Source of the DNA: a virus
Length of the DNA: 39,308 nt
IMG/VR virus record: IMGVR_UViG_3300015263_000371
Reading direction: 5' to 3' (one strand)
Of this stretch, positions 7,811 to 38,686 are shown one piece after another (position 1 is the first letter of the stretch; each line of letters opens with the position of its first letter). Made by a program: the position numbers and the translations under genes. The notes below the pieces were generated by a model. The model saw only the letters and a list, made by a program, of their open reading frames with translations. It made no database searches and was not told the origin of the DNA.

Positions 7811-7811
7811 C

Positions 7812-8156
7812 ATGGGCGGAAACACTGGAAGCTCACAACCGCAGAACCCGTTTGGTCCGCAGAACTATTCTGCGCCGACCACACCCCCAATGAGTATGCC
7901 TCCGGTTCAAATGCCGAATATGCCAAACCTGCCGAATCTTCGCGGTGCTGCGCCGGTAACACCAGCAGTTCCGCAGTTACCGGCGATGCCGCAACTTACC
8001 GGGGCTCCCGGCGGCGGGAACTACATCAACCAACTCATGCAAATGCCGTTTGTGCAGAACAGCCCTCAAATAATGCAACAGTTGCAGCAAGCATTACAGC
8101 GTATTCAGAATAGGCCGCAAGCTCCTAATTTGCTTACGCTGCCTAATGGGAGATAA
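7812..8156 (+). CDS. Pro/Gln/Met-rich low-complexity protein (114 aa), probable internal virion protein
   Basis: ATG 7812 follows a GAGAGGAA RBS and lies inside track ORF 7788-8156. The N-terminus is MGGNTGSSQPQ. Confidence 0.5.
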   Translation: MGGNTGSSQPQNPFGPQNYSAPTTPPMSMPPVQMPNMPNLPNLRGAAPVTPAVPQLPAMPQLTGAPGGGNYINQLMQMPFVQNSPQIMQQLQQALQRIQNRPQAPNLLTLPNGR

Positions 8157-8158
8157 AA

Positions 8159-8863
8159 ATGGGCGGCAAATCTTCATCCCAACAGCAGAGCCAAACGGTA
8201 AGCCAGCCCTGGGGACCGACTCAGCAGCCGCTTACTGATTTAGTTAACAATGTCGTAGCCAATAACGCGACGTTGCCGGATTATAGTCCGCAGACAGCGG
8301 GTTTGGCGAATAACCTGCTTTCCAATCAACCAAACTATAATCAGAATGCGCAGGATTATTACAACACCTATGCGCAGGGCTTGTCTCCATTCACGAATGC
8401 GAACTATCTCGACCCAATGAGCAATCCCTATCTCGGGACTGCCATGCAGACGCTAAATTCTGATATTACCAATCAGATTAACGATATGTTCGCCGCGAAC
8501 GGTCGGCAGGACTCGGGATTAAATCAACAGGCTCTAGCCCGTGGGTTGTCCCAGGGCGAAGCGCAATTGTTGATGAACCAATACAATACCAACGCCAATA
8601 ATTATCTCGGCGCGCAAAGTTCTCTGTACGGGGCGGGTAACGCCACTAATCAAGGCATTCTAGGAAATGCCCTAACGGGGCTTAATACAGCGAATAATAT
8701 CCCCGGAATGGTGAATAACACAGCGGCAACGGAACAATTGTTGTTGCCTATTGCCGGCCTTGGCGGTCAGACGAATAGCAGCGGTACAAGCACCACGACT
8801 CAGCCGCTATCTCAGACATGGGCGCAATGGATGAGTCCATTCAAGTTTAGCTGGGGCGCATAA
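8159..8863 (+). CDS. Gln/Asn-rich protein (234 aa), probable internal virion / ejection protein
   Basis: GGGAGA RBS. The N-terminus MGGKSSSQQQSQ parallels the preceding gene, and N/Q content is very high. Confidence 0.55.
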   Translation: MGGKSSSQQQSQTVSQPWGPTQQPLTDLVNNVVANNATLPDYSPQTAGLANNLLSNQPNYNQNAQDYYNTYAQGLSPFTNANYLDPMSNPYLGTAMQTLNSDITNQINDMFAANGRQDSGLNQQALARGLSQGEAQLLMNQYNTNANNYLGAQSSLYGAGNATNQGILGNALTGLNTANNIPGMVNNTAATEQLLLPIAGLGGQTNSSGTSTTTQPLSQTWAQWMSPFKFSWGA

Positions 8864-8865
8864 CT

Positions 8866-10233
8866 ATGGCTTCCCTTCTCGATTCATTTGCATTCAATCC
8901 GCAATCCTACACCAGCCTGCTAAGTATGCTGGGGCTTGGTGGCGACTCCGGTTTGCCTCCTAGTGCTGGACCGATGAATATCTCTCCACTCGGCCCCATT
9001 GGGCAAATGCAGGCGTTCCCCGGTCAGGCCGTAGCGCAGGCCGATAAATCGCTTGCGACCCAAGCGGGGCAGGCTCCCGCACAATTGCCACCGCAAGCGA
9101 AGCCGGCGCAATATCAGCCACAGAATGAGGGGCCACCGGAAGCCGGTATTCTTCCGGGCATCTTTGGACGGCTACAGGCAGGCGCAACAAACCTGACCAG
9201 CGGCGGCAACCCGATAGCCGGTATCATAAACGCGATTGGCGGTCTTGCCACGGGCCAGCGTACTGATCCTATCGGTATGCGAATGCAGATGATGAAGGCG
9301 ACCTATGACGCGCTTCTTCCCCAACTCGGTCCCAAGCTCGCTTATGCGGCGGCATTGAACCCGCAGGTGCTTGGGGAGTTGGCGAAGCCGCAAGCAATAG
9401 CTCCGGGTGGAGAATTGGTTTCCGCTCTAGGTGCCGGCCCAGGCGGCGCTCCGTCGTCGCCCGGAACACAATCGGGTGTTATAACGCAAAACACCAATGG
9501 CAAGATGGATGAGGGTACGCTTCGGCAACTTGCCGACCAATATATAGCCGGCGATCCATCCGTATTGCAAAATCTTGGCCGCACGGCAATCGGCGCGATG
9601 AACGTGGTTGAATTGCGCAAGATGATTGTCCGCAGAATGCAGGAAATGGGTATTAGCCCGAGACAGCAGGCCGTCAGGATGGCTGAATTTCAAGGTCTTA
9701 CGGCTTCTGAAAGGACTCTTGGAACTCGCCTTGCGAATGTTACCCAGGGCGTTGAGGAAATGGGGCCGTTGGTCGAGCAATTAAATCAAACCTATTCCAA
9801 AGTTCCGGGGATGACAAATATTGTTCCGTGGAACAAACTGATTCAAAAAGGCGCAACACAACTCGGCAATGCCGATATGGCGCGGGTGAAGGCAGCGGTT
9901 TTCTCGCTGGCGAATGCTTATGCCCGCATGATTAGCCCGACCGGCCAAATCCACCAAGAGAACATCAATCACGCCCTAGAAGTGTTGGGAGAGGGTTATA
10001 GCAAGGGGCAAATGTCGGCGGCTACACAGCAGCTTATGCAGGAAGCCAACGCGATCAAGACCGGCAACAGAAACGCGATGCAAACATTGCGGACAAATTA
10101 TATGTCTGCGGCTGGGAATCATCCAAATATTGATCCCCGTGCCATCAATGCACTTAAGTCCAATCCGGCTCTACGCGACCAATTCGATGCAAAATATGGG
10201 GCGGGCGCTTCTGCTAGTGTCCTGGGTCAGTAA
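8866..10233 (+). CDS. Probable internal virion / ejection protein (455 aa)
   Basis: Disordered P/Q/A/G-rich N-terminal half followed by a helical C-terminal half. Position is between the tail genes and the lysozyme-domain gene. Confidence 0.5.
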   Translation: MASLLDSFAFNPQSYTSLLSMLGLGGDSGLPPSAGPMNISPLGPIGQMQAFPGQAVAQADKSLATQAGQAPAQLPPQAKPAQYQPQNEGPPEAGILPGIFGRLQAGATNLTSGGNPIAGIINAIGGLATGQRTDPIGMRMQMMKATYDALLPQLGPKLAYAAALNPQVLGELAKPQAIAPGGELVSALGAGPGGAPSSPGTQSGVITQNTNGKMDEGTLRQLADQYIAGDPSVLQNLGRTAIGAMNVVELRKMIVRRMQEMGISPRQQAVRMAEFQGLTASERTLGTRLANVTQGVEEMGPLVEQLNQTYSKVPGMTNIVPWNKLIQKGATQLGNADMARVKAAVFSLANAYARMISPTGQIHQENINHALEVLGEGYSKGQMSAATQQLMQEANAIKTGNRNAMQTLRTNYMSAAGNHPNIDPRAINALKSNPALRDQFDAKYGAGASASVLGQ

Positions 10234-11528
10234 TGGCTAACTTTTTCGATCAATTCGACGCCCCCGCTACACAGGGCGCCGCATCAAACTTTTTCGATCA
10301 ATTCGACTCCCCGCAAGCCACCGATTCCAACCAACCGGCATCACAGAATCAACCGCAACAAAAACCATTTAGCATTCTGGATACATGGCCGGTTAAACTA
10401 GCCGAGGGTCTATGGCAGGCCGCAAAATATCCCGGCGAAGTATATGCCGGGAACGAGGTTGTCCCCAGCAGCGCAAACGGCGGCGAGAATATTGATAAAG
10501 TTACAAACCTAGCTGGCATTGCCCCGGTGAGTCAGGTTGTTCCGGCAATGCGGGCCGTCCCGCCAGTTCTTTCATCAATCCGGTCTGCGGCCAAGTCACT
10601 TTACCGGAGGGCCAATAATCTTAAATTTGAATTGAAGCCGGGGGCATTGGGCGATTTCGGTTCTGGCTTGCAAGCGGCCCTGAATCAAGAGGGTTGGAAT
10701 GATGTAACAGCCCCCAAGACAATGGGGCTTATAAACAAACTCCAATCGTCCCCAGAGGGGAGTTTCGTTACTCCGCAGAATATACATTCCGCGCAAAAAT
10801 CATTCGGGATGGTGCGCGATTCGGTTAATAACGACGCGGCGGATAGGGCGGCGGCAGGCATTGCGTTAAACCACTTCAATAACTTTCTGGAAAATCTCGG
10901 TCAAAACGACTTGCGGGCCGGCTCGCCAGACATGGCGCAAAATTATGTTTCGCTCATTAAGGAAGCGAACGGGAACTACACATCGTATAAACTCGGAAAC
11001 TCGCTAGAGCAACGCATATACAACGCGCAAAACAATGCCGCTTCAGCACACTCGGGCGCAAACGTTGAAAATGCCCTGCGCACACAATTCAGACAAATAA
11101 TAAATAACCCCAAATTGCAAAGGGGATATACCCCGGAACAATTGTCTGCCATGCAGCAATTCGTGCGTGGGTCTGGACTTGAAAATATTACCCGAGCGGG
11201 TGGGAATCTTTTGGGCGGCGGCGGCGGTCTTGGAATGATAGCGGCTGGAAGCATTGGTCACCTTATGGGGCTTCCGCCCGAGGCGCTTCCGATGGTCGGC
11301 CTGGCATTAAAGCAATTCGGCAATAACAGGGCGTTGAGCGAAGCCAATCAAATTGCGGAGATGATTAGGGCGGCATCGCCGCTTGCGCGATCCGGGGCCA
11401 AGTCATTGGTAGCAAGGAGTCCGCTCGCGGTCGGGGCAGCGGCGTCAGGTGCGCGGCTATTGCCGCAGTACACCACGCCTCCGAACTTCCAACTTTTGTC
11501 TAACGTAGCTCCATATTTTGCACCCTAG
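10233..11528 (+). CDS. Probable internal virion / ejection protein (431 aa)
   Basis: TAATG overlap with the upstream gene. The N-terminus contains a duplicated NFFDQFD motif, and the C-terminus has Gly-rich hydrophobic segments. Confidence 0.5.
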   Translation: MANFFDQFDAPATQGAASNFFDQFDSPQATDSNQPASQNQPQQKPFSILDTWPVKLAEGLWQAAKYPGEVYAGNEVVPSSANGGENIDKVTNLAGIAPVSQVVPAMRAVPPVLSSIRSAAKSLYRRANNLKFELKPGALGDFGSGLQAALNQEGWNDVTAPKTMGLINKLQSSPEGSFVTPQNIHSAQKSFGMVRDSVNNDAADRAAAGIALNHFNNFLENLGQNDLRAGSPDMAQNYVSLIKEANGNYTSYKLGNSLEQRIYNAQNNAASAHSGANVENALRTQFRQIINNPKLQRGYTPEQLSAMQQFVRGSGLENITRAGGNLLGGGGGLGMIAAGSIGHLMGLPPEALPMVGLALKQFGNNRALSEANQIAEMIRAASPLARSGAKSLVARSPLAVGAAASGARLLPQYTTPPNFQLLSNVAPYFAP

Positions 11529-11672
11529 AATAATACCGACGAACAATAGAACCGATAGCGCACCGTTTTGTGCGTCCGTCAGTGGCAATTTTAGCGCGGC
11601 AACTGCGCTTGCGCACACAACATAAAGAAAGAGAAAAAGCGGGTAACGCGATTTTTCTGGATTTATAACCAT
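11457..11672 (-). CDS. Candidate antisense two-TM small protein (71 aa)
   Basis: ATG 11672 lies inside track ORF 11457-11699. Two hydrophobic helices are present (YPLFLFLYVVCASAVAAL and ALSVLLFVGIILGC). It fills the 142-bp gap in the + late operon, and no promoter or RBS was verified. Confidence 0.25.
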   Translation of the reverse strand: MVINPEKSRYPLFLFLYVVCASAVAALKLPLTDAQNGALSVLLFVGIILGCKIWSYVRQKLEVRRRGVLRQ

Positions 11673-12375
11673 GTCCTCTATTCCTACACCCCAAGACATA
11701 ATATCCTATTTGGGCGGTATTGGCTATTCCCCCGCGCAAAGCGCAGCTATTACGGGGAATATCGAGCAGGAATCCGGCTTTGACCCCAATAATCTCAACA
11801 AGAAAGAAGGCGCATACGGGCTCCTGCAATGGCGCAATGACCGGCTGGCTAACCTACAGAAATACGCCCTAGCCAACGGAAAAGACCCCTCGGATTGGCG
11901 CACACAACTTGATTTTGCCCATCAGGAAATGGGGACGACGGAAGCAAAAAGCGCCGCCCCGTTTCTACAATCGCAAGACGTTTCTAGTGCTAACGCTGCC
12001 CTTAAAAGATATATCCGCTACGGGGATAATTCAGAGGGAACGAGATTAAAAAACGCGACTAATTACCTTCCGGCCACCCCTAATTTCCAGATTGCCCAGG
12101 CAACACCACAACCGGCTCCGCAGACGGCACAGCAGGCACCGCCGGCTCAACAAGTAGAACAACCGGCAGCCAAGCCGATACAGGCTCCGCAGGCCAACCC
12201 AAATCTCCCGGCATTCAGTTGGTCGCCGCGACCTATGCCTGTGTCGGCCCCGGTGCCCGTACAAGCCCCGGCGATGCAATTAGCGCCGCCCATGCCGCCC
12301 CGGCAGATTGATCCGCGTCTATTGCAAGCCCTCGCGCTCCATTTTCAGCGCGTTTACCCAACAAGGATTTCCTAG
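11671..12375 (+). CDS. Phage tail lysozyme-domain protein (234 aa), virion-associated peptidoglycan hydrolase
   Basis: The motif ITGNIEQESGFDPNNLNKKEGAYGLLQWRNDRLANL matches the phage tail lysozyme family pattern (from memory). It has a P/Q/A-rich C-terminal extension. Confidence 0.6.
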   Translation: MSSIPTPQDIISYLGGIGYSPAQSAAITGNIEQESGFDPNNLNKKEGAYGLLQWRNDRLANLQKYALANGKDPSDWRTQLDFAHQEMGTTEAKSAAPFLQSQDVSSANAALKRYIRYGDNSEGTRLKNATNYLPATPNFQIAQATPQPAPQTAQQAPPAQQVEQPAAKPIQAPQANPNLPAFSWSPRPMPVSAPVPVQAPAMQLAPPMPPRQIDPRLLQALALHFQRVYPTRIS

Positions 12376-12897
12376 ATGTTCGACGCGGCCCCGGCGTGGT
12401 TCCGTCTAGCATTGACTGAAATCGGCACAAGAGAAGAACCGGAGAATAAAGGCCCCGCTATCCGCCGCTACATCAACATGGCGCATTGCGGAGAAGAAGG
12501 CGACCCGTGGTGCGCGATCTTCGTCAATGCGATGCTGGAGACTTCCGGTGTTACCGGAACGCGCTCGGCATCCTCTCAGTCTTTCACTCGTAACAGTCAC
12601 TTCGTCCACATGGGCAAACCGGCCCTTGGGGCGGTTGTCGTTTTCTGGCGCGGTAGCGGCCCCCACTCGGGTATCGGCCACGTCGGATTCTACAGGGGAG
12701 AATTGAACGGTTACGTCTATACCCTCGGCGGAAATGAGGGGGATATGGTTCAAATAGAACCGTATCCAAAGAATAGCCCGAGATTCGGGCTTGTCGGTTA
12801 TTTCTGGCCCGCGTCTATCCCGATTCCGCAGACCGGCCCAATCATCATGCCGGCTGGAACTCCAGCCCATCAAACAAATCCAAGCAAAGTCATTTAG
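12376..12897 (+). CDS. TIGR02594-type NlpC/P60-CHAP peptidoglycan hydrolase (173 aa), likely endolysin
   Basis: The motifs PAWFRLALTEIGTRE...DPWCAIFVN...GHVGFY...LGGNEGDMV are typical of the TIGR02594 family. It is followed by small membrane proteins. Confidence 0.75.
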   Translation: MFDAAPAWFRLALTEIGTREEPENKGPAIRRYINMAHCGEEGDPWCAIFVNAMLETSGVTGTRSASSQSFTRNSHFVHMGKPALGAVVVFWRGSGPHSGIGHVGFYRGELNGYVYTLGGNEGDMVQIEPYPKNSPRFGLVGYFWPASIPIPQTGPIIMPAGTPAHQTNPSKVI

Positions 12898-19240: not shown

Positions 19241-20269
19241 TTAGAGGTCCGCGACCCCGCCCTGGTAATCCGGGTGATGGTGCCCATAGGTTTGCTCTAA
19301 CGTCTTGACAGTCATTCCAAGATGCCCCGCCACGTCCCAGACCGGGGCGCCCTTCTGCATCAGCCACGTTGCCCTAGTGTGGCGTAGCGTGTGCGGCGTC
19401 ACCCCTTTTAACCCGGCGGACTTACAAATCCGATCCCAGCTCCTATGCGGTTGTTTAATGGATTGGCCGTTGTAATGACAAACCGTGGCACAGGAACCGC
19501 CGTCAAGCCGTTCCCAGCGCCGTAGGTGCGCTAGAATGCGCCTTCCTAGCCTCACGGGTGGGGCGCGCTTATTCAGCGCACCAGCGGCCATTTGTGGCCT
19601 TCTGTGCAAAATGGCCCGTTTGAGGTCTATTTGGTCCCATTTCAGCGCCAGAATCACGCCCTTTCGGGAACCCGTGTAGAGGCAAAGCAGGATCATTCTG
19701 GCCAAATACGGGGTTTTTCTGGCCACTTTCAGGAGTCGGGCGGCTTCCGACCGGGTAAGCCAGCGGGTTCTGGGGAGTGGGTTCGCCGGTATCGTGACCC
19801 GTGGGACCATCTCCAGCGGGCCGTGTTCCTTGTGCCAGTGATTGATTGCGGCCTGGAGAATCTTGAGGTCAACCAGCGCCCCGCCCTGTTGCCTTGGCTC
19901 CGCATACGCGCGGCAGTTCGCGCTGGTCACGTCCATTACCCTTTTGTCGCCCCACCACTTATTCAGATTCGAGACGTTATATCTCAGGTTGCGAGCCGTG
20001 CGGCGCTGCGGAACTACCTCTTTGAGATACGCTAGAAGAATCTCCGCTATTGACGGACAGGATGATTGTCGCGGGCGGTAGTTCGCCGCGATGTAGTCTC
20101 CCAGGAGTTTTTGCGCAGCATCGAGGTCAGAGCTGCCTGTGCGGACGAAACGCGCTCCGTCGCGGATGACGTAGCTATTGCGCCGTCGGTCATACCACAG
20201 GCGCGCTCCCTTGCTCTGGCGCGGCAATTTTCGATCCAATCCCGAATATCTGCCCGCGTTGTATGCCAC
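19241..20269 (-). CDS. int: Tyrosine integrase (342 aa, GTG start)
   Basis: Contains LYTGSRKGVILALKW (Arg box), HTLRHTRATWL, and LGMTVKTLEQTYGHH (catalytic Tyr). Confidence 0.9.
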   Translation of the reverse strand: MAYNAGRYSGLDRKLPRQSKGARLWYDRRRNSYVIRDGARFVRTGSSDLDAAQKLLGDYIAANYRPRQSSCPSIAEILLAYLKEVVPQRRTARNLRYNVSNLNKWWGDKRVMDVTSANCRAYAEPRQQGGALVDLKILQAAINHWHKEHGPLEMVPRVTIPANPLPRTRWLTRSEAARLLKVARKTPYLARMILLCLYTGSRKGVILALKWDQIDLKRAILHRRPQMAAGALNKRAPPVRLGRRILAHLRRWERLDGGSCATVCHYNGQSIKQPHRSWDRICKSAGLKGVTPHTLRHTRATWLMQKGAPVWDVAGHLGMTVKTLEQTYGHHHPDYQGGVADL

Positions 20270-29037: not shown

Positions 29038-29301
29038 ATGGGCAGGCCAAAAGGATCACAGAACAAAGATAAGCCGTTTAGAGAAGCATTGCGTATGGAA
29101 ATCGCTGCGCTTGCGGACGTTGACCAGCGCGGATTGCGCAAGATTGCACGCGAACTGATTCTCAAGGCCGAATCTGGCGACGTGATCGCGACGCGTGAAA
29201 TTGCCGACCGCCTTGATGGCAAAGTTCCGCAAGCCATTGGAGCCGATGACGAATCCGGCCCGGTCAAGCTGGAAATTGCTTGGGCGAATGTGGGGGGCTG
29301 A
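29038..29301 (+). CDS. terS: Probable small terminase subunit (87 aa)
   Basis: The N-terminus MGRPKGSQNKDKPF is typical of small phage terminase/DNA-binding proteins (from memory). It lies upstream of TerL, and no SD was seen. Confidence 0.45.
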   Translation: MGRPKGSQNKDKPFREALRMEIAALADVDQRGLRKIARELILKAESGDVIATREIADRLDGKVPQAIGADDESGPVKLEIAWANVGG

Positions 29302-29614: not shown

Positions 29615-29932
29615 ATGATAAAGCGCATAGCATTGCTTTCCGCGCTATTACTGGCCGGCTGCCAAACGACGCAAACGCCGCCGCCCGAGTATGTCCACCC
29701 GTACAGGGGCGAGCTGCACATTCATTACGCGGCGGACCTCCACGCCGAATGCCTGGCGTTCAACAATCCTGATAAGATATTCGGTTGCGCTTTCGTGTGG
29801 TCCAAGTCCTGCGACGTTTACATCCTCAGCACTGAGCCCCCGGATAGCCAAGCGCAGATCAAGGAACACGAGTTAGCGCATTGCAACGGCTGGCCGGCGG
29901 AACATAACCCGAGTGCGCCTTGGCCGTTATGA
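29615..29932 (+). CDS. Lipoprotein with HExxH motif (105 aa)
   Basis: Signal peptide plus lipobox MIKRIALLSALLLAGC, and the motif KEHELAHCNGW. ATGA overlap with the terL start. Confidence 0.65.
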   Translation: MIKRIALLSALLLAGCQTTQTPPPEYVHPYRGELHIHYAADLHAECLAFNNPDKIFGCAFVWSKSCDVYILSTEPPDSQAQIKEHELAHCNGWPAEHNPSAPWPL

Positions 29933-31209
29933 CCGATGTGCACCGCATTGTCATTCCGTACACACCGCGAAAGCAGTTTATACAGTTTCACAACCGGATC
30001 GAGCGATTCGCCTGTATCGTCGCGCATAGGCGGGCCGGCAAGACGGTTGCTTGTGTGCACGAGCTACAAAAGGAAGCCCTGACAAATCCACGTCCCAATC
30101 CGAGAGTGGCTTACATTGCGCCCTTACTTAAACAGGCCAAGGCGGTTGCTTTTGACTATCTGCGGGAAGCTATGTCTCCGTTTCGGCAGTTGGGCGCTAC
30201 GGTTAATGAATCCGAACTCCGGGTTGATTATCCTCACGGCGGAAGGGTCCGACTGTATGGGGGTGATAATCCCGATGCGCTCCGAGGTATCGGACTTGAT
30301 CTCGCCGTTATTGATGAACCAGCAGACACCGACCCACGACTATGGGCCGAAATCATCCGCCCTGCACTAGCGGACCGTAAGGGCCGCGCGGTATTCATTG
30401 GCACCCCAAAGGGCCATAACTCGTTTTATGATGTATGGCGGAGATCCCAAAAGGAGGGCGAATGGTTCTCTTTGATGCTCAAGGCATCCGAGACGAATCT
30501 TATCGAGCCGGAGGAACTCGCGCAGGCCCGCGCCGAAATGTCGGAGGACCAGTACGCGCAGGAATTCGAGTGTTCCTTTGATGCGGCGGTTATCGGTTCT
30601 TATTACGGAAAGTTAATTTCGGAAGCGGAAGCGGACAAGCGCATTTGCGGTGTTCCGCATGATCCTAGCGCCCAGGTCTGGACGAGCTGGGATTTAGGTA
30701 TTCGCGATGCTACGGCTATTTGGTTCGCTCAGGTGGTTGGCAAGGAAATCCACCTCATTGATTACTACGAGGCGTCGGGCGTTGCGCTTGAGCATTACGT
30801 TAGGGCGATACAGGACAGGCGTTACAATTACGCCGGCCATATCGTCCCGCATGACGCGCAAGCCAAGGAATTGGGGACCGGAAAGTCCCGATTGGAAGTA
30901 CTGGACAGTCTTGGACTGAGGAATGTCACGGTAGCCCCCATGCACCGTGTAGAGGATGGCATCAACGCTGCTCGGGTAATGATTCCCCGGTGCTGGTTTG
31001 ACAAGAAAAAGACCGAAAGGGCCATAGAGGCTATGAAGCTCTACAGGTCCGATTACGACGAGCGGCAGAAGATATTGAAGCCGACCCCGGTGCATGACTG
31101 GACTAGCCATTGTGCTGACAGTTTCCGTTACTTGGCTATGACACTCGATAACGTCCGGCAGTCCAACTTTCATAAAAAGATCGTTTATCCTAAGTTTGGT
31201 GTCGCATGA
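29929..31209 (+). CDS. terL: Terminase large subunit (426 aa)
   Basis: ATG 29929 forms an ATGA overlap with the upstream gene. Walker A is AHRRAGKT and Walker B-like is LDLAVIDEPAD. It has a C-terminal nuclease-size domain and is followed by the portal region. Confidence 0.85.
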   Translation: MTDVHRIVIPYTPRKQFIQFHNRIERFACIVAHRRAGKTVACVHELQKEALTNPRPNPRVAYIAPLLKQAKAVAFDYLREAMSPFRQLGATVNESELRVDYPHGGRVRLYGGDNPDALRGIGLDLAVIDEPADTDPRLWAEIIRPALADRKGRAVFIGTPKGHNSFYDVWRRSQKEGEWFSLMLKASETNLIEPEELAQARAEMSEDQYAQEFECSFDAAVIGSYYGKLISEAEADKRICGVPHDPSAQVWTSWDLGIRDATAIWFAQVVGKEIHLIDYYEASGVALEHYVRAIQDRRYNYAGHIVPHDAQAKELGTGKSRLEVLDSLGLRNVTVAPMHRVEDGINAARVMIPRCWFDKKKTERAIEAMKLYRSDYDERQKILKPTPVHDWTSHCADSFRYLAMTLDNVRQSNFHKKIVYPKFGVA

Positions 31210-31379
31210 CGGATACGGACCCGACTGCAAGGGTGGATATTGTTTACCCTCACAGAATGGGCTGGCTGCGGCGTCCCGAGTTGGAAAAAGAGGGTTCGGG
31301 TGAAGTTTGGGAATTGCCGGATGGCCGGCTGTTCCACTGGAAGGGCACGGGACCGTTACTGATACAGGTCATAAAATAA
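31206..31379 (+). CDS. Small protein (57 aa), below the track cutoff
   Basis: ATGA overlap with the terL stop. Translation: MTDTDPTARVDIVYPHRMGWLRRPELEKEGSGEVWELPDGRLFHWKGTGPLLIQVIK. Confidence 0.4.
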   Translation: MTDTDPTARVDIVYPHRMGWLRRPELEKEGSGEVWELPDGRLFHWKGTGPLLIQVIK

Positions 31380-31450
31380 TGGGCGTTCTTTTCGTGATTT
31401 TCGTCATTGTCATCGTTTTTGGTTTCATTGAAGTATTCAGGCCGAAATGA
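31379..31450 (+). CDS. Possible 23-aa hydrophobic peptide
   Basis: TAATG overlap upstream and ATGA overlap downstream. Translation: MGVLFVIFVIVIVFGFIEVFRPK. Confidence 0.25.
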   Translation: MGVLFVIFVIVIVFGFIEVFRPK

Positions 31451-32676
31451 CCTCATTATGGGATTTGCTATCGGCTCCGGGGGCCAATTACGGCACCTTG
31501 TCGCCACAAGAATTACCAGCGAATCCGCCCACGATACTCGACAGCATTATTGCTGGATTGGGTAAGACTGCGGCTAATGCCGCGATGGCTCCTGGCAACG
31601 CCTATAAGTATGGCGGCACGGTTGATGAGATGATTAAGCCTGCGGCTGACCTAGCGATGATGACGACGCTAGGGGCCGGGGCCATGCCAGCGGAAGCGGA
31701 CGCTCTTAGAATGGGGATCAGGGCCTACCACGGCAGTCCCTACGATTTTAATAAGTTTGATTTGAGCAAGATCGGCATGGGCGAGGGCGCCCAGGCTTAC
31801 GGGCATGGACTGTATTTTGCCGAGAATCCAGCGGTTGCGGAACAATATAAAAGGGCCTTGACCGGATTAAACCCAAACTCGCTAGGAAGCGGTAAGGCGC
31901 AATTCGGGGTTAATGGCGTACCAATGCCGTCCGGTATTTCTGGTCATGCGGCTCTGGATACCGGGCAGCAAATGGATTTGCTTCTGTCAACAATGAAGCA
32001 CAATCCAGATAGCACGATGATACCGTTTCTTCGGCAGCAAATCGAAAACAGGATTGCAAACCATTATTCGATGACAAGCGGAGGCTCCGCTGGCGAGGAT
32101 ATGCGGGCGATGGCCGATTATTACAACAAACACGTTAAGAACGCCACGCCGGAACAAGTTTCGAGCATAGCTCCGGGCCGCATGTACGAAGTCAACATAA
32201 ACGCCGAACCGCAACAGTTCTTGGATTGGGAGAAGCCTATTGGTGAGCAGCCGCAAGCCGTAAAAGATATAGCGCAACAAATTGGTTTACCCGCCGAATA
32301 CAGTTTTCCGAAACTCAGTAATAGAATTGGGGAACCGCCATTACCGGCCACAAAAGAAAATTATGGGAGTGATTTTTATAGGCGCCTGGGAGCCAAAATA
32401 ATTGCCGATAAAACCCGGACACCAGAAATAGCGAACCCGGTTTCCGTTGGCGACATTATCGACCCATTCGCGTCTAAGGCTCTTTCCGACGCCGGCATCC
32501 CCGGCATTAAATACCTAGACCAAGGTTCGCGCGGTTCCGCTACTGGAACTAGAAACTACGTCGTTTTCAATCCCGATATTATAGACATTATCCGAAAATA
32601 CGGACTTGCTGGATTATTCCCAGCAGCCGGCGCACTAGCGCCGCCGCGTCAACAAGCTCCAATTCTTTCGCAGTAG
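31447..32676 (+). CDS. Conserved phage protein (409 aa) with H-Y-E ADP-ribosyltransferase-like motifs
   Basis: Contains IRAYHGSPYDFNKFDLSKIG.GEGAQAYGHGLYFAENPAVAEQY, then PGRMYEVNI, and a C-terminal IKYLDQGSR...NYVVFNPDII. It sits between TerL and the portal gene. Confidence 0.65.
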   Translation: MTSLWDLLSAPGANYGTLSPQELPANPPTILDSIIAGLGKTAANAAMAPGNAYKYGGTVDEMIKPAADLAMMTTLGAGAMPAEADALRMGIRAYHGSPYDFNKFDLSKIGMGEGAQAYGHGLYFAENPAVAEQYKRALTGLNPNSLGSGKAQFGVNGVPMPSGISGHAALDTGQQMDLLLSTMKHNPDSTMIPFLRQQIENRIANHYSMTSGGSAGEDMRAMADYYNKHVKNATPEQVSSIAPGRMYEVNINAEPQQFLDWEKPIGEQPQAVKDIAQQIGLPAEYSFPKLSNRIGEPPLPATKENYGSDFYRRLGAKIIADKTRTPEIANPVSVGDIIDPFASKALSDAGIPGIKYLDQGSRGSATGTRNYVVFNPDIIDIIRKYGLAGLFPAAGALAPPRQQAPILSQ

Positions 32677-32680
32677 GTCA

Positions 32681-35008
32681 ATGGACTCCACAAACGAGAC
32701 TCCCCAGCGCGGTAAAATGCGCATTGAAGAATTGCGCGCCATGCTGGCTTCCGAGCATGAAGCCGCTATGGGCGCAATGCAGGCGTCCAAACTAACTACC
32801 GACCGCGCCGACGCCCTGGATTATTATTTCGGGGACATGACCAAGGATATGCCCGTCGAGGACGGGCGCAGTTCTGCGGTTTCTTTCGACGTTGCGGACA
32901 CCATTGAGGGCTTGATGCCTTCAATGATGGAAATTTTCGCGGGCTCGGACGAAGTGGTGCAATTCGATCCGGTCGGCCCGGAAGATGTAGAGGCCGCAAG
33001 ACAGGAAACGGATTACGTCAACCACGTTTTTATGAACGAGAACCCCGGTTTTATGGTTCTCTACTCGTTTATTAAAGACGCGCTTTTATCGAAAGTCGGA
33101 TTCGTCAAGGTTTTTTGGGATCAACGCGAAAAAGAGGAAAAAGAGACTTATTACGACCAATCGGATGATGCTTATGCGCTGATTTGCGCCGACCCCGACG
33201 TTGAGGTTGTCGCGCATTCCGAGCGTCCCGACCCTTCGGGGATGATTCCGGGCATGGAACAAGCCCCTCCGGGCGCCGAAAAGCAGCCCATGCTGCATGA
33301 CGTGACAGTTGTACGGAAAAAAGATTATTCCAGTGCAGCCGTGGTCAATGTTCCACCGGAAGAATGCGGATTAGAGCGCGGGGCTAGGACTCTAAAGGAT
33401 TGCAACTACTTTTTTCATAAGGTTTTGAAGGCCGAACAGCGTCTAATCGAACAGGGTTATGACCCTCAACAGGTTAGAGCCCTTCCTGTTTATCGTGCGT
33501 ACACGAATATGGAGGAAGTCAACCGCGATTCGGTTGACGAACACCAGTTTTACGATTCCGACGTTAATCCTGCGGTCAAGCAAAAGCAGGTGATCGAGCA
33601 TTACGTTAGGATGGATTATGAGGGTGATGGGGTTTCCCGGCTTTATCGGGTGACGACTTCCGGTCTGACGGGCGAAATCCTCAATCTGGATGGAAAGCCC
33701 GACATTCAAGAGTGTGACGAAATTCCGTTTGCCGCAATGTGCCCGATTCCTGTCACGCACAGGTTTTGGGGCCGGTCGATTGCCGACGTTACACTAGATA
33801 TTCAGAAGGTAAAGACAGCGATCACACGCGGCACTCTCGATAATATGTATCTTGCACTAAAGCCGCGCGTAGAAGTCGCTGAAAGCCTTTCGTCGGATTC
33901 CACCCTTGATGACCTTTTGGTTGCAAGACCGGGCGGGATTATAAGAACGAAACAACCGGGGGCCGTGAACTGGCAAGTTGTCCCGAATATCGCGGAATCC
34001 GCCTTTCCGGTTCTTGAATATTACGACACCCTGAGAGAATGGCGTACTGGTGTATCCCGTCAGGGGCAGGGAATCGACGCTGACGCGCTACAGAATCAGT
34101 CCGCCACGGCTGCCAATCTCGCTTACACGGCTTCCCAGGCGAGAATGAAACTTATAGCCCGGATTTTCGCGGAAACCGGAATCCGCGACCTGTTTTATCT
34201 GCTTCACGGGACCATCAGAAAGCACGGTCAGAAAGCAAGAACGGTAAGACTTCGCAACCAGTGGGTTCCGGTCGATCCAAGGAATTGGAAAACCCGTAAT
34301 GACATGACGGTTCACGTCGGTACGGGATCGGGTGGACGTGCACAGAGACTAACCGAACTTTCCATGATTACCGCGTCACAGGAAAAAGCCCTGACCGCCG
34401 GCCTGACCAATTTGGTTACACCTAACAATCTCTATGAAAGCGCCAAGGAGCTGGTAAGGGCCGTGGGATTCAAGGACGTTGATAAGTTTTTCTCCAATCC
34501 GGCTAATAGTCCGCCTCCACAACAGCATCCCGACCCCAAGATCATGGAAATGCAGATGCAGGCGCAATTACAGCAGCAAAAGCAGCAGATCGACGCCGCG
34601 CACCAGAGAGCCAAGATGGAAGCCGACGCCGCTTTGGAACAACAGAGATTCGAGCATCAGCGCCAGCTTGAAGCCATGAAACTACAGATGGACGACGCCA
34701 AGAGGCAGCACGACGACCGCATGGCCGAAATGGATTTGGCTATGCAGCAGCAGAAACATCAGATGGATATGGCTGCAAAGCAGCTAACAATGGAACATCA
34801 GAAAACGGAACACACCCTGAAAACCGGCGGCGTTGTTCCAGACGAAATCATGCCGAAAGTCCACGAACATTTGAATGGAATTGCGCAAAATCTTGCGCAA
34901 CATAGCGAACAATTGCATCACGCCTTGCACAAAGCGATCACGGCGCCGAAAAGGGTTGTGCGCGATCCAAAAACAAACCGCGTTATCGGTGTAGAAACTA
35001 TCCAATAG
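32681..35008 (+). CDS. Portal protein, P22-like, with long C-terminal Q-rich coiled coil (775 aa)
   Basis: The segment DALDYYFGDM...GRSSAVSFDVADTIEGLMPSMMEIFAGSDEVVQFDPVGPEDVEAARQETDYVNHVF...GFMVLYSFIKDALLSKVGFVKVFW matches the P22-type portal N-terminal pattern. The tail is MEMQMQAQLQQQKQQID.... Confidence 0.85.
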   Translation: MDSTNETPQRGKMRIEELRAMLASEHEAAMGAMQASKLTTDRADALDYYFGDMTKDMPVEDGRSSAVSFDVADTIEGLMPSMMEIFAGSDEVVQFDPVGPEDVEAARQETDYVNHVFMNENPGFMVLYSFIKDALLSKVGFVKVFWDQREKEEKETYYDQSDDAYALICADPDVEVVAHSERPDPSGMIPGMEQAPPGAEKQPMLHDVTVVRKKDYSSAAVVNVPPEECGLERGARTLKDCNYFFHKVLKAEQRLIEQGYDPQQVRALPVYRAYTNMEEVNRDSVDEHQFYDSDVNPAVKQKQVIEHYVRMDYEGDGVSRLYRVTTSGLTGEILNLDGKPDIQECDEIPFAAMCPIPVTHRFWGRSIADVTLDIQKVKTAITRGTLDNMYLALKPRVEVAESLSSDSTLDDLLVARPGGIIRTKQPGAVNWQVVPNIAESAFPVLEYYDTLREWRTGVSRQGQGIDADALQNQSATAANLAYTASQARMKLIARIFAETGIRDLFYLLHGTIRKHGQKARTVRLRNQWVPVDPRNWKTRNDMTVHVGTGSGGRAQRLTELSMITASQEKALTAGLTNLVTPNNLYESAKELVRAVGFKDVDKFFSNPANSPPPQQHPDPKIMEMQMQAQLQQQKQQIDAAHQRAKMEADAALEQQRFEHQRQLEAMKLQMDDAKRQHDDRMAEMDLAMQQQKHQMDMAAKQLTMEHQKTEHTLKTGGVVPDEIMPKVHEHLNGIAQNLAQHSEQLHHALHKAITAPKRVVRDPKTNRVIGVETIQ

Positions 35009-35018
35009 GAAAAAATAA

Positions 35019-35465
35019 ATGGCCTATTATGACGCGCTGGTTGCGGCGTGGAACTCCGCTACGCAGCCGCCTACCGGCGTTACCGGGACCGCGCTTACTG
35101 CCGGGATGACCACGCAGCAAAAATTAAATGCGGTCAATGGCTGGACCTCCGTTGGCCCCTCCGTTCCAATGGTGATTCCTACTTATCTAATTTATAATGT
35201 AATTGTCGCCTCCGAATTTAATGCTCTCACGGCGGCAAATCAGCAGAATATTCGCGATATTCTCGACATGGGGACGGTCGATACGTCGCCCGGAACGCAG
35301 GCGCGTTCTCGGACAATCGCGATTTTCCCGAATGGTACGCAAACTTTCACCAATCTTTCAAATTTAGCGAAAACATACGATTCGCCACAGATTCCCTGGT
35401 GGCAAGCCAATAATTATCCGCGCGCTTTCGACTTGGGCGATTGTGCGGCAGCAGGAGTTAGCTAA
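35019..35465 (+). CDS. Hypothetical virion protein (148 aa)
   Basis: Track ORF immediately after the portal gene. Confidence 0.55.
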   Translation: MAYYDALVAAWNSATQPPTGVTGTALTAGMTTQQKLNAVNGWTSVGPSVPMVIPTYLIYNVIVASEFNALTAANQQNIRDILDMGTVDTSPGTQARSRTIAIFPNGTQTFTNLSNLAKTYDSPQIPWWQANNYPRAFDLGDCAAAGVS

Positions 35466-35929
35466 TGGCTACTGAAAAATGGATTTCCGGCACCGGTGTC
35501 GGCCTGACGTGGACAACAATAATGTCCACGGAATTGAACTCGATAGCATCCGGCAACGCAATCCTTGGCGGCACCGCGATAACAAACGGTACTGCGCTAG
35601 ATATTTTTGCTGATTTTTCACTTGTGCTTGCGAGTGCTGCCTTTGTGGCGCCGAATTTCATTGGGCTTTATTTGTATCCACTCAATGACGACGGAACTAG
35701 CTACGGCGACGGTCGTTTTGCAACTTCGGCAGCCGGACCGCCTCCTAATAACTATTCCATTGGAAGTATAGGTATTGTCGCGGCAACCCAGGCGCAGACC
35801 GGTTCGCTGACTGGAATTATCATGCCGCCTGGGACATGGAAGCCGGTTCTATACAATCAGGGTGGCGTTGCGCTTGCTGCAGCCAGCAACACTCTCAAAT
35901 ACCGAACCTATAATCGCTCGGTGGCGTAA
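35465..35929 (+). CDS. Hypothetical beta-rich virion protein (154 aa)
   Basis: TAATG overlap with the upstream gene. Confidence 0.55.
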   Translation: MATEKWISGTGVGLTWTTIMSTELNSIASGNAILGGTAITNGTALDIFADFSLVLASAAFVAPNFIGLYLYPLNDDGTSYGDGRFATSAAGPPPNNYSIGSIGIVAATQAQTGSLTGIIMPPGTWKPVLYNQGGVALAAASNTLKYRTYNRSVA

Positions 35930-36793
35930 GTGAGTCGTCTTTTAATTTCGCCAACGAAGCAAATAGCACAGGGCCAAATTCGCCACGAAAGCGGGCCGCT
36001 AAAGATTGATTGGACTAACCCGCTGACTAGAAATTTGGAAGCATGTTTCTTGCCCGGCGCTACAGGGATTGTCGATATTTGCGGTAAGCAGGCTCCGCTA
36101 ACTTCCTCAAGTCCCACTCCCGGCGTGACTCCTGACGGCGTTGGAGTAGCGACAGTCGGACCCGCTTCCGCTTATAGCGGATCAGTAGTTAATGCCTCTA
36201 CTGTGGGCGGCGACCTAACTTTATTTTGGCGCGGTCTGCAAGTTTCAAATGCCCCAGGTGCAAATAGTGGACAATATATTGATATTCCCACCAGCGGATC
36301 GGGAAGTTTTATAGGAGTCCTATTCGTAAATGGAAATGGCACGGGTAATTGGGATTTAGCCTGGAATCATGGCGGGACATTTCTTAATGTCAACACAACC
36401 ACCCAATCTGCCGCTGGTTATGGTGGGAAAATAGTAACCCTCTGCGGGGTAATTCCAGTTGGGGGAACTTGCATACTTTATCGCGACGGAAACAATATAG
36501 GATCGAAAGCATTCGGTGCCGGTTCTCCAACCGTCACCGGACCCACAATGCAGGTCGGAGCCGCAATAGGCGCATCAAATAATATAATCACGAACATAGG
36601 AATGGTTTGGAATAGGGCTCTTTCGTCCACCGAAGTTTCGCAGCTTCAATATAACCCATACGGTTTTATAATTCCAGCGAAAGAAGAATTGCCGGCTGTG
36701 TATTTATCAGCAGCCGCATTTTCCGCAAAATTCAGAAGAACAGCCTCACCCATAGGTGGGCGCGTCGGTTCACGCCAATCATGGGCGGCATAA
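35930..36793 (+). CDS. LamG / concanavalin-like lectin domain protein (287 aa, GTG start)
   Basis: The motifs LTLFWRG...WDLAWNHGG...ILYRDGNNIGS...GMVWNRALSSTEVSQL fit the LamG_3 pattern, including the terminal (i/v)wNraLs..E(i/v)..L motif. Confidence 0.55.
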   Translation: MSRLLISPTKQIAQGQIRHESGPLKIDWTNPLTRNLEACFLPGATGIVDICGKQAPLTSSSPTPGVTPDGVGVATVGPASAYSGSVVNASTVGGDLTLFWRGLQVSNAPGANSGQYIDIPTSGSGSFIGVLFVNGNGTGNWDLAWNHGGTFLNVNTTTQSAAGYGGKIVTLCGVIPVGGTCILYRDGNNIGSKAFGAGSPTVTGPTMQVGAAIGASNNIITNIGMVWNRALSSTEVSQLQYNPYGFIIPAKEELPAVYLSAAAFSAKFRRTASPIGGRVGSRQSWAA

Positions 36794-37549
36794 ATGACAG
36801 CTCTCGTTAAGCAATCCTCCACTCAGCTCGCGCTTAAGTTTTTCCTCACGCAAAGCGCAGATCACATAACCGGACTTACGGGCGCAACCCCCACGGTTAC
36901 AATTCGCAAGGAGGGGGGTGCATTCGCCGCGCCTTCTGGAGCTGTAACCGAAATAGCTAATGGCTGGTATCAGGTTGCGGGCAACGCGACCGACACGAAC
37001 ACGCTTGGCGAGATTGTATTACATGCAACGGCTGCAAGCGCAGACCCGTTCGATGGACCGGTTGCCCTTGTTGTTGGATTCGACCCACAGGCCGCGCTTG
37101 CTACTCCAACGAATATCACGGCGGCAACAGGCATTACGGTTTCCACCAATAGCGACAAGACGGGGTATTCGCTAACCCAGGCATTCCCAACTAATTTCTC
37201 CGCTATGGGGATCACGGCGGGTGGAAACGTAAGTTCTGACCTAAAAGCGATCAACACAGATACAACTTCCGCAGCAAACCTTGCCAAAACTACGGGGGCG
37301 GTCGCCACCGGCACAGTTACAGCGGGCGCTACTACGACAAGCATTCCGACCAGCGCATTTTCTCCGTCTGGTACGGCTGCGGACCAATTCAAAGGCAGAA
37401 TAGTTACCTTTACTTATAATACCACTACGGCGGCGTTGCGTGGTCAGTCCACGGATATAACCGCGAGTAGCGCCTCGGCAACGCCAACCCTTACGGTTAC
37501 GGCGCTTACCAGCGCGCCGACAAGCGGCGATACATTTGTGGTGACGTAG
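36794..37549 (+). CDS. Thr/Ala-rich fibre-like protein (251 aa)
   Basis: Track ORF abutting the upstream stop, with a T/A/S/G-rich beta-type composition. Confidence 0.55.
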   Translation: MTALVKQSSTQLALKFFLTQSADHITGLTGATPTVTIRKEGGAFAAPSGAVTEIANGWYQVAGNATDTNTLGEIVLHATAASADPFDGPVALVVGFDPQAALATPTNITAATGITVSTNSDKTGYSLTQAFPTNFSAMGITAGGNVSSDLKAINTDTTSAANLAKTTGAVATGTVTAGATTTSIPTSAFSPSGTAADQFKGRIVTFTYNTTTAALRGQSTDITASSASATPTLTVTALTSAPTSGDTFVVT

Positions 37550-37550
37550 T

Positions 37551-38105
37551 GTGGTCGCCGTCACAAGACTCGGGTTCGACGGCTATGGCGTAAGACGCGC
37601 CGGCAGTTTTTCTGCAAAGGCTGGCGAGACTCACCCGGTAGGGATAATAACTAGACTTTCTCTGGATGGTTACGGCGCAAGACGCGCCGGGACTTTCTCT
37701 GGAAAGACACCGGAAGCAACCGGACCTGTTATCGGTGTAACCGGCGGCGATAGAATCTCCGGCGGCTATTTCAGCCGGAAACGCTGGCATGAAATAATAG
37801 GCGCACACCGCGCCGCGCTACGGGCTGCGGAAGTTACACGCTCAAAGAAAAAGAAGGCCGCATTAGAAAAAGCGGCGCAATTAGCGAAACGCGCGCTCGA
37901 TTTGGCGGAACACGCGGAAGTCAGCGCATTAAAGACAGATATTGAAAATCTGGCGTTGAACCTTGATGCCGCAAGCTCTGCGGTCAGGGTTGCCGATTCT
38001 TTGAAGCGGGCGAAATTCGCGCAGGAAATCGCCCGTGAATTGATTGCCGCCATTGAACGATTTGAAGATGAGGAAGAAGCCATCGCGCTTCTATTGATGA
38101 ACTAA
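37551..38105 (+). CDS. Repeat plus coiled-coil protein (184 aa, GTG start)
   Basis: Two 29-aa tandem repeats (TRLGFDGYGVRRAGSFSAK and TRLSLDGYGARRAGTFSGK) are followed by a K/A/E-rich coiled coil. Confidence 0.55.
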   Translation: MVAVTRLGFDGYGVRRAGSFSAKAGETHPVGIITRLSLDGYGARRAGTFSGKTPEATGPVIGVTGGDRISGGYFSRKRWHEIIGAHRAALRAAEVTRSKKKKAALEKAAQLAKRALDLAEHAEVSALKTDIENLALNLDAASSAVRVADSLKRAKFAQEIARELIAAIERFEDEEEAIALLLMN

Positions 38106-38686
38106 TGAATGACAAAGTGACGATTTCGGACGGCGCCAGCGCAACAGTCATTCGCGGGGCCGGGGTGAAAGATATTGCTCCGCTTAAAGGCGTTTACACG
38201 GCGGAATGTATCGGGGCGGATGGAAAAGTTAAATGGTCGGACAAGATCATCAACACGGTCGCGACGGTTGGTAAAAATCTCGCGCTCGACACGATCCTTG
38301 CGGGCTCCGCTTACACGGTTGTCGGTCCCTATATGGGGTTGATTTCAAGCGTGTCCTATACGGGGATTGCCGCTGCCGACACCATGACAAGTCATTCCGG
38401 GTGGACGGAGGCCGGTAGCGCGAATGCTCCAACTTATACAAGCCCGCGAAAAACCTGCGCTTGGTCGGCGGCCTCTGGTGGTTCAAAGTCTCTTTCGGCC
38501 TCCCTTTCGTTCGCGATTACGGGAACGGGTACGCTGAAAGGCGCGTTCATCGTGTATGGAACCGGCGCACTAAGCACGATTGATAATACGGCGGGCACAT
38601 TGCTATCCGCCGGTCTATTCGCGGAAGGAGACAAAACGGTAGCAGCATCCGACACGGTGAATGTTAGTTACACCCTGGCGATGTAA
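38105..38686 (+). CDS. Hypothetical beta-rich virion protein (193 aa)
   Basis: TAATG overlaps on both sides. Confidence 0.55.
   Translation: MNDKVTISDGASATVIRGAGVKDIAPLKGVYTAECIGADGKVKWSDKIINTVATVGKNLALDTILAGSAYTVVGPYMGLISSVSYTGIAAADTMTSHSGWTEAGSANAPTYTSPRKTCAWSAASGGSKSLSASLSFAITGTGTLKGAFIVYGTGALSTIDNTAGTLLSAGLFAEGDKTVAASDTVNVSYTLAM

Follow-up and report, generated by a model that had tools for sequence, protein, structure and literature searches.

A stand-alone ART-PolyVal-type protein with an atypical H-Y-N site, encoded between the terminase and portal genes of a putative temperate podophage

What kind of protein is encoded between the genes for the large terminase subunit (TerL) and the portal protein in the virus of IMG/VR record IMGVR_UViG_3300015263_000371, and could it be a component of the virion that acts in the infected cell? 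To address this question, we analyzed the complete 39,308-nucleotide stretch (hereafter, the window), in which an open reading frame (ORF) on the plus strand, 31447..32676 with the stop codon included, encodes a 409-amino-acid (aa) protein. An earlier note on this DNA had tentatively described the protein as an ADP-ribosyltransferase (ART) of the PARP/diphtheria-toxin class, with an H-Y-E set of catalytic residues, and as a candidate packaged effector. The ORF and all the motifs quoted at the time were confirmed at their coordinates, and so was the location between TerL, identified by the Terminase_6N domain, and the portal (PF23899, E 1.5e-195). The results presented below provide good support for the classification of the protein as a stand-alone member of the ART-PolyVal superfamily with the ART fold, and we consider it about an even chance (probability of roughly 0.5) that it is a virion-delivered, NAD+-dependent mono-ADP-ribosyl modifier with an atypical, H-Y-N site.

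ART-PolyVal is the ART domain of the polyvalent proteins of phages and conjugative elements, with the prototype in the virion RNA polymerase of Roseovarius Plymouth podovirus 1 (RPP1) (Iyer et al. 2017, PMC5512222). This family (PF18760) is the best Pfam match of the 409-aa protein (E 8.4e-6, 27.0 bits), followed by weaker matches to DUF3990 and PARP, both of the ART clan; the PARP model (PF00644) scored 11 bits (E 0.31), below its cut-off of 26.7, and no NCBIfam model covers the protein. Several homologues score above the PF18760 cut-off (P0014, 31.7 bits; P0025, 34.3 bits; P0078, 34.6 bits; P0049, 46.8 bits), and in two homologues the match reaches profile position 126-127 (4-127 in P0078); in most members, PF18760 covers just the first third of the domain (profile positions 8-46). 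A word-indexed search recovered over 3,900 clusters of homologues, almost all with an existing PF18760 annotation. In a profile search covering 1.84 billion representative proteins, E ≤ 1e-3 was reached by 18,888, which correspond to about 18,900 clusters at the 50% identity level, and E ≤ 1e-30 by 10,699. When the alignment of the insert-free core was compared by hhalign with tankyrase-2, the sequence of which was checked to be 100% identical to PDB 3w51_A, the probability was 77% with E 2e-5; the comparison with five canonical ART-PolyVal domains gave a probability of 86% and E 5e-6. The ART/PARP resemblance that had been read from motifs is thus above chance. A tblastn search of phages with the RPP1 ART domain yielded 12 records, four of which served as canonical examples, and a homologue search initiated from the same domain returned nothing.

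Structural modeling points to the same fold. In the AlphaFold2 model of the 409-aa protein (mean predicted local distance difference test score, pLDDT, 78.6), a strand at residues 91-97, a strand at 122-125 and a helix at 128-139 are followed by a helical insert, a strand at 245-251, a second insert and three strands at 353-357, 369-373 and 379-385. The Foldseek comparison that the earlier note proposed, run against BFVD, gave matches with a probability of 1.0, labelled "ART-PolyVal-like" or "large polyvalent protein", at E down to 2e-19, and these labels, along with PF18760, bear out the suspected link to domains of polyvalent proteins. For a model of the 270-aa homologue P0078 (pLDDT 82), the top 50 PDB matches were essentially all ART-fold proteins, including tankyrase-1/2 (E 0.01, probability 0.99), Xre-RES toxins, PARP1/10/14/15, diphtheria toxin, KptA and RhsP2.

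The NAD-binding half of the predicted active site is readily recognizable. We examined residue conservation in 412 non-identical copies of the domain from 75 genome loci, 80 IMG/VR loci and the representative library; these loci were retrieved with peptide patterns derived from strands 1, 2 and 4, so that the counts for those motifs are biased, whereas those for positions 248 and 370 are unbiased. Strand 1 (31717..31740, plus strand; residues 91-97 in the model) consists of the motif IRAYHGSP with H95 (codon 31729-31731) and S97, and aligns with H1031-G-S1033 of tankyrase-2. The segment 31771..31854 on the same strand encompasses the Gly-rich loop GxGEGAQAYGHG, strand 2 (LYFA, with Y123 at 31813-31815) and, next to it, a helix that carries Y134 (31846-31848); both tyrosines lie within GHGLYFAENPAVAEQY, in the Y-x10-Y arrangement typical of PARPs. 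In the hhalign alignment, H95, S97, Y123 and Y134 are paired, respectively, with H1031, S1033, Y1060 and Y1071 of tankyrase-2, and H95 is conserved in 410, Y123 in 412 and Y134 in 411 of the copies. The assignment of H95 and Y123 as predicted NAD-site residues, made in the earlier note, is therefore well supported. The pocket is near-invariant despite an overall identity of 30-40%, and the retention of some 10 polar pocket residues in so diverse a group of proteins speaks for a functional active site.

The third residue is a different matter. The Glu that had been taken as catalytic, E248 (32188-32190, in RMYEVNI), belongs to strand 3 (model strand 245-251), which together with the motif that follows it (GRMYEVNINAEPQQFLDWEKP) occupies 32176..32238 on the plus strand. 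Although the adjacent Y247 is invariant, E248 is variable: it is kept in 306 of the 412 copies (74%), compared to 410 for the His and 412 for the Tyr, and is replaced by K (35 copies), Q (31), T (13), H (7), N (6), D (4), R (4) and other residues, including S, A, V and G. In all these substituted copies (26%), H, Y and N370 are intact. The equivalent position is R in gp40 of Burkholderia phage Bp-AMP1 and S, P or V in canonical ART-PolyVal domains; most of the canonical relatives checked lack the Glu of strand 3. In addition, the alternation of Y247, V249, I251 and A253 would orient E248 toward the polar side of this strand.

The slot normally filled by the catalytic acid appears to be occupied by N370. 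The segment 32494..32604 (plus strand) encodes strand 4 (GIPGIKYL), a loop with the motif D358-x-x-S361-R362, strand 5 (R-N370-YVVF) and strand 6 (IIDIIRKYG); strand 5 reads T-R-N370-Y-V-V-F-N-P (model strand 369-373), with the N370 codon at 32554-32556. N370 is present in all 412 copies, D358 in 398, S361 in 395 and R362 in 400, and positions 368-369 are S/T and R/S/H/Y. By definition, ART-PolyVal carries H in strand 1, Y in strand 2 and D in strand 5 (PMC5512222); the canonical domains that we compared have a Glu in strand 5, namely GEIMVV in RPP1, TEAMVI in R7L, NEGMII in RD07 and DEEFLVFDP in L092b, which is a full-length PF18760 match (59.7 bits). Assuming no late gaps, N231 of P0078 (the counterpart of N370), N248 of P0025 and E181 of L092b share position 121 of the Pfam profile, and an extended hhalign alignment, of low confidence, pairs N370 with E1138 of tankyrase-2 and E248 with strand 3. 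The assignment of N370 to this slot is based on the order of the strands, the motif [NE]-[YF]-x-V-[FY]-[DN]-P and the Pfam coordinate arithmetic. Alignments of the C-terminal half with tankyrase or the canonical domains by hhalign or mafft were unreliable and were discarded; the hhalign alignment with the canonical domains mis-pairs strand 5 with strand 4.

A canonical H-Y-E transferase of the PARP/diphtheria-toxin class, with E248 as the catalytic residue, thus appears highly improbable. E248 is, to be sure, the majority residue at its position, and Y-E-V-N-I superficially resembles the Y-x-E-x-[IV] pattern, but in the model this residue sits in strand 3, which is followed by strand 4 and, much farther downstream, by strand 5. 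To this are added its frequent replacement in copies with the other three residues intact, its counterparts in gp40 and in the canonical domains, its alignment with strand 3 of tankyrase-2 and its likely polar-face orientation. As far as can be judged from the sequence, the active site is H-Y-N rather than H-Y-E. The E248A control that had been suggested would miss catalysis because E248 is variable and located in strand 3 whereas the catalytic slot is that of N370. In annotation terms, the residues worth mutating are H95, Y123, Y134 and N370, along with D358, S361 and R362, rather than E248.

What would an Asn do in this position? One answer is nothing, that is, the protein might be a catalytically dead ART fold that serves as an internal or ejection protein of the virion, or as a sponge for NAD+, ADP-ribose (ADPr) or ADPr-derived immune signals. 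Such a role would fit the replacement of the strand-5 acid in 412 of 412 copies, given the Glu in canonical ART-PolyVal relatives, as well as the presence of a homologue, gp5 of Sulfitobacter phage ΦGT1, as a low-copy virion component and the occurrence of the domain inside internal virion proteins. However, pseudo-enzymes usually lose the residues of the pocket, whereas here, across about 18,900 clusters, H95, S97, Y123, Y134, N370, D358, S361, R362 and the GxGEGAQ loop are almost invariant. Moreover, up to 7-8 tandem copies in a single polyvalent protein would suit the dosage or diversification of an effector over a structural role, and close relatives such as Bradyrhizobium phage ppBeUSDA76-2 build virions without this gene. 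We therefore regard loss of activity as fairly unlikely. Human PARPs that lack the catalytic Glu (H-Y-I, H-Y-L and H-Y-Y) are tabulated as mono-ARTs (PMC7955679), which makes mono-ADP-ribosylation plausible for the H-Y-N proteins as well, even as the lack of an acid in strand 5 argues against canonical catalysis.

Alternatively, the H-Y-N proteins might be NAD+ glycohydrolases (NADases) or other small-molecule NAD+/ADPr enzymes that hydrolyze or convert NAD+ or its derivative early in infection. In the PDB comparison of the P0078 model, the second to fourth places are taken by RES NADase toxins, and P0049 shows a weak RES match. In the mycobacterial NADase toxin TNT/CpnT, Q822 is, we presume, located at the position of the catalytic Glu of ARTs. 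The activity of this toxin is glutamine-dependent, with Q822K combined with H792N abolishing toxicity (PMC8092274), and some phage ARTs may act as NADases (Iyer et al. 2022, PMC9503650). Nevertheless, the RES triad (R-E-S) appears to be absent from the H-Y-N proteins, the rest of their site is PARP-like (H, S, Y, Y), and their variable surface inserts look more like modules for the recognition of macromolecules. Depletion of NAD+ is a strategy of host abortive-infection systems, and upon entry it would hurt the replication of the phage itself. All considered, a NADase seems quite unlikely.

A broader and more speculative possibility is that the H-Y-N subfamily is a distinct, very abundant class of virion-delivered proteins that handle NAD+ or ADPr but are not conventional protein ADP-ribosyltransferases. 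N370, together with the D358-x-x-S361-R362 loop, would in this case support a different reaction, such as ADP-ribosylation of nucleic acids or small molecules, transfer involving NAD-capped RNA, or cleavage or sequestration of NAD-derived immune signals. Should this be the case, NAD-based defence would be disarmed at the very moment of DNA entry; we view this scenario as rather doubtful.

The proposal of a virion-delivered modifier draws on two observations that connect the family with phage particles and that lend support to the idea, put forward in the earlier note, that this gene of the head module encodes an effector carried by the virion. First, gp5 of ΦGT1 is a homologue of the 409-aa protein (tblastn, 32% identity, E 3e-29) with the same motifs. 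This protein was detected in purified virions by mass spectrometry, with 12 spectra and an SC/MW value of 0.29, compared to the contamination level of 0.2 set by the authors (PMC10386132, Table S3). Second, the H-Y-N domain is embedded in gp40 of Bp-AMP1, a 1,665-aa internal virion protein D resembling T7 gp16. Packaging into the head has been predicted computationally for phage ARTs that are encoded next to the terminase and the portal (PMC5512222, PMC9503650). By analogy, the 409-aa protein is probably carried in the virion.

The regions outside the ART core offer candidates for incorporation and for target choice. The N-terminal segment (residues 1-88; 31447..31710, plus strand) combines low-confidence helices with a Gly/Ala-rich hydrophobic stretch, AADLAMMTTLGAGAMPAE. 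Its pLDDT is 40-68, with helices predicted at residues 30-75, and P49, G76 and P81 are at least 90% conserved; in the short homologue P0078, the equivalent helices have pLDDT of 80-94. The disordered N-terminus that had been suspected is accordingly borne out for residues 10-23, where pLDDT is below 50, but not for residues 30-75, with their predicted helices and conserved P49. In proteins of 300-450 aa, the profile is matched from about position 15-30 onward, compared to about 80-100 in the giant polyvalent proteins, and since the matches in polyvalent proteins start only at the ART core, the N-terminal segment is specific to the stand-alone form, making it a candidate segment for virion incorporation or anchoring. 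The first insert (residues 140-237; 31864..32157, plus strand) is helical in the model (helices within 167-230, pLDDT 86-97), varies in length and sequence among homologues and has no counterpart in P0078, in P0025 or in the first of the two P0049 copies; it is a candidate target-recognition module. The second insert (residues 265-345; 32239..32481, plus strand) is variable and mostly helical. The protein ends with a Gly/Ala/Pro-rich tail, LAGLFPAAGALAPP... (32605..32673, plus strand; pLDDT 51-54), which has a conserved KYGLAG start.

Taken together, these features suggest how a virion-delivered mono-ADP-ribosyl modifier might work. The protein would be made late, together with the terminase and the portal, and incorporated into the virion, with the N-terminal ~88 residues replacing the covalent tether that polyvalent proteins supply. 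Upon infection, it would enter the cell with the DNA and act at the onset, presumably binding NAD+ through the PARP-like H95/S97/Y123/Y134 pocket and attaching one ADP-ribose unit to a macromolecule of the host or of a defence system. The presence of N370 in place of the strand-5 Glu/Asp could result in mono-transfer, either by substrate-assisted catalysis or with the aid of one of the other invariant residues, D358, S361, R362 or E113, and the variable helical inserts (140-237 and 265-345) may select the target. The fold, the family, the pattern of conservation, the gene context and the presence of a homologue in virions are observed, whereas ejection, the use of NAD+, the transferase activity and the target are inferred.

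Several observations weigh against this proposal. With regard to the family and fold, the PF18760 score of the 409-aa protein lies below the gathering cut-off of 31.2 bits, with only profile positions 8-46 aligned. Foldseek found nothing significant in the PDB for the full-length model, probably owing to the interruption of its small ART core by two helical inserts, and P0078 was modelled instead for this reason; the E-values of the PDB fold matches of P0078 are themselves marginal (0.01-1), albeit consistently ART across the matches. Searches of the PDB sequences with phmmer and hmmsearch, using the protein, the family profile and the insert-free core, gave chance matches only (a pseudokinase, gp41 and mitoribosomal uS5). 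With regard to catalysis, no acidic residue occupies the canonical catalytic position, which is Asn in 412 of 412 copies, and the exchange of Asp for Asn is the classic isosteric way to inactivate an enzyme; the pairing of strand 5 with the tankyrase Glu is of low confidence. Finally, with regard to delivery, the virion evidence comes from a 32%-identical homologue of low abundance, the ART gene is dispensable for virion assembly given its absence from ppBeUSDA76-2, and ejection into the cell is, for every member of the family, still a prediction.

In the window, the ART gene is tightly linked to its neighbours. The ORF list, the translation and the PF18760 match all indicate that the 409-aa ORF is a real gene, and the sequence indicates that it is translationally coupled within an operon consisting of TerL, two small ORFs, the ART gene and the portal gene. 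TerL (29920..31209, plus strand; Terminase_6N E 3e-10, phrog_2) is the first gene of the coupled block. Its stop overlaps (ATGA) the start of a 57-aa ORF (31206..31379, plus strand) for which no family match was found; in related phages, the slot of this ORF is taken by an unannotated small gene (93 aa, locus L001) or by a gap of about 300 nucleotides (locus L004). The stop of the 57-aa ORF, in turn, overlaps (TAATG) the start of a 23-aa, purely hydrophobic ORF read directly from the sequence (31379..31450, plus strand), MGVLFVIFVIVIVFGFIEVFRPK, whose own stop overlaps the ART start (ATGA); this candidate gene could encode a tiny membrane peptide or be a mere coupling spacer. The SU10-type portal gene (32681..35008, plus strand) starts 4 nucleotides past the ART stop. 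A scan for promoters and terminators gave sites no more numerous than in shuffled sequence and no standout signal. The base composition is uniform, with a GC fraction of 0.50-0.55 and no anomaly, and thus does not point to a recent acquisition from a foreign source.

The window probably represents the entire genome of a temperate podophage, about 39-40 kb in size and circularly permuted; the same 409-aa protein is also encoded on a contig of 39,904 bp. The temperate lifestyle follows from the presence of a tyrosine integrase gene (19241-20269, minus strand). Other identifiable genes encode the major capsid protein (2730-3683), a phage tail lysozyme (PF18013; 11671-12375, plus strand) and a DUF5681 protein in the small-terminase position (29038-29301, plus strand). 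Between the portal and the scaffold and major capsid protein genes, there are six to seven genes for Ala/Gly/Thr-rich proteins (35019-38686 and 71-1357, both plus strand), one of which (35930-36793) has a concanavalin-A-like/Laminin_G_3 match; these proteins look like fibre or decoration proteins, in a position that is unusual for a podophage head module. The nearest isolate is ppBeUSDA76-2, with a portal that is 57% identical. In this phage, the portal gene directly follows TerL and there is no ART gene in between, which makes the ART gene of the window an accessory insertion. The portal region of ppBeUSDA76-2 (locus L008, 4998-7209) is annotated as a 184-aa hypothetical protein and an unannotated gap of about 1.6 kb, and tblastn recovered the full portal in two pieces; the record probably contains a frameshift here or was annotated incompletely.

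The H-Y-N domain is found both as a stand-alone protein and inside giant polyvalent proteins, encoded by ORFs of 1,600-7,242 aa, with up to 7-8 copies. Tandem copies include the two in P0049 (501 aa), the first of which is compact and lacks the inserts, and the 7-8 matched stretches in the giant polyvalent proteins P0121, P0123 and P0143 (5,500-7,242 aa). Related loci come from metagenome-assembled genomes of Alpha-, Beta- and Gammaproteobacteria, Planctomycetota, Verrucomicrobiota, Patescibacteria and others. The stand-alone gene follows an SU10-type portal gene in L001, L018 and L092, precedes it in L004 and in the window, and precedes a P22-type portal gene in L145, whereas in L002 it lies between genes for large presumed internal proteins and tail fibres. 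Pfam searches of sampled neighbours thus place the ART gene next to SU10- or P22-type portals in unrelated backbones. In a tblastn comparison of the TerL, portal and major capsid protein of the window with 155 related loci, these genes were near the ART gene in only about 20, a count that underestimates the association because the family occupies many different backbones. In L092, a gene for a 568-aa H-Y-N protein (7455-9161), located after an SU10-type portal gene, adjoins a gene for a 1,159-aa polyvalent protein (9158-12637) with an N-terminal canonical ART-PolyVal domain and an acidic strand 5 (DEEFLVF). This side-by-side occurrence suggests that the H-Y-N and acidic types are not redundant. 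There are also hints of fusions of the ART domain with ADPr-processing domains: P0080 (685 aa) has an N-terminal DUF6496 domain (residues 7-52) and a long C-terminal extension, and in Tunturiibacter phage Tunturi_5 the match falls under a gene annotated as a MutT/NUDIX hydrolase.

Comparison with characterized systems helps to define the place of the H-Y-N proteins. The similarity to ART-PolyVal includes the strand-1 His, the strand-2 Tyr (or Phe), the ART fold, the occurrence in polyvalent, multicopy form, the portal and terminase neighbours and the predicted delivery with the virion; the difference lies in strand 5, where an acid, Asp by definition and Glu in the examples checked, is substituted by an invariant Asn. 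The H-Y-N subfamily additionally possesses the D-x-x-S-R loop, the GxGEGAQAYGHG loop, the two variable inserts and, in the stand-alone form, the N-terminal extension. With PARPs and tankyrases, these proteins share HGSP[FY], G-x-G-[IL]-Y-F-A-E-N-x4-Q-Y, the second Tyr at +11 and the strand-5 pattern [E/N]-Y-V-[VI]-[FY], but they have Asn instead of the catalytic Glu, no regulatory or helical domain of the PARP kind and different inserts; the resemblance is at the superfamily level and does not amount to membership. Phage T4, a myovirus, relies on a defined system for capsid targeting and processing. Its Alt protein is the experimentally established case of a head-packaged, injected ART, one that is made late and acts at the start of infection (PMC5512222), and the analogy of the 409-aa protein to Alt, and to ModA/ModB, would be functional only: Alt belongs to the R-S-E (Alt/VIP2) clade whereas the site described here is H/Y-based, and the Pfam and PHROG scans gave no Alt/VIP2 family match, nor was there sequence similarity to Alt. 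In the same kind of scan, neither the 409-aa protein nor any of the 20 homologues covered gave a match to the MuF (Phage_Mu_F) domain. With RES/TNT NADases, the likeness is confined to the fold-level matches to Xre-RES toxins and the single weak RES match in P0049.

Two phage proteins come closer. ΦGT1 gp5 has all the motifs, including RNFVVF, and is encoded in the head module, but after the portal gene, between portal and scaffold, rather than before it as in the window; gp5 is described as a "head module" protein, with no function given in the record or the paper. Bp-AMP1 gp40, a homologue of which in Bp-AMP4 is among the BFVD matches, contains one copy of the H-Y-N domain (WHGSP ... GHYVT ... 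SNYVLF) in a protein of the ejected-core type; in this case, the domain forms part of a large multidomain fusion, and its residue at the E248 position is R. The domain family, its polyvalent-protein setting and the idea of packaging and injection are already known (PMC5512222, PMC9503650), and databases label the homologues ART-PolyVal-like; the Asn-slot signature, the D-x-x-S-R loop, the inserts, the N-terminal extension and the link to the ΦGT1 gp5 detected by mass spectrometry appear to be new. In the literature that could be searched, we found no biochemical study of any member. Domains of the ART-PolyVal type rank among the most common accessory domains in tailed phages, and the 409-aa protein, a stand-alone member encoded by a small temperate podophage, with a virion-detected homologue and a defined, unusual H-Y-N site, provides a tractable entry point, the study of which could reveal whether ART-PolyVal proteins are injected, what their targets are and whether the Asn slot supports ADP-ribosyl transfer.

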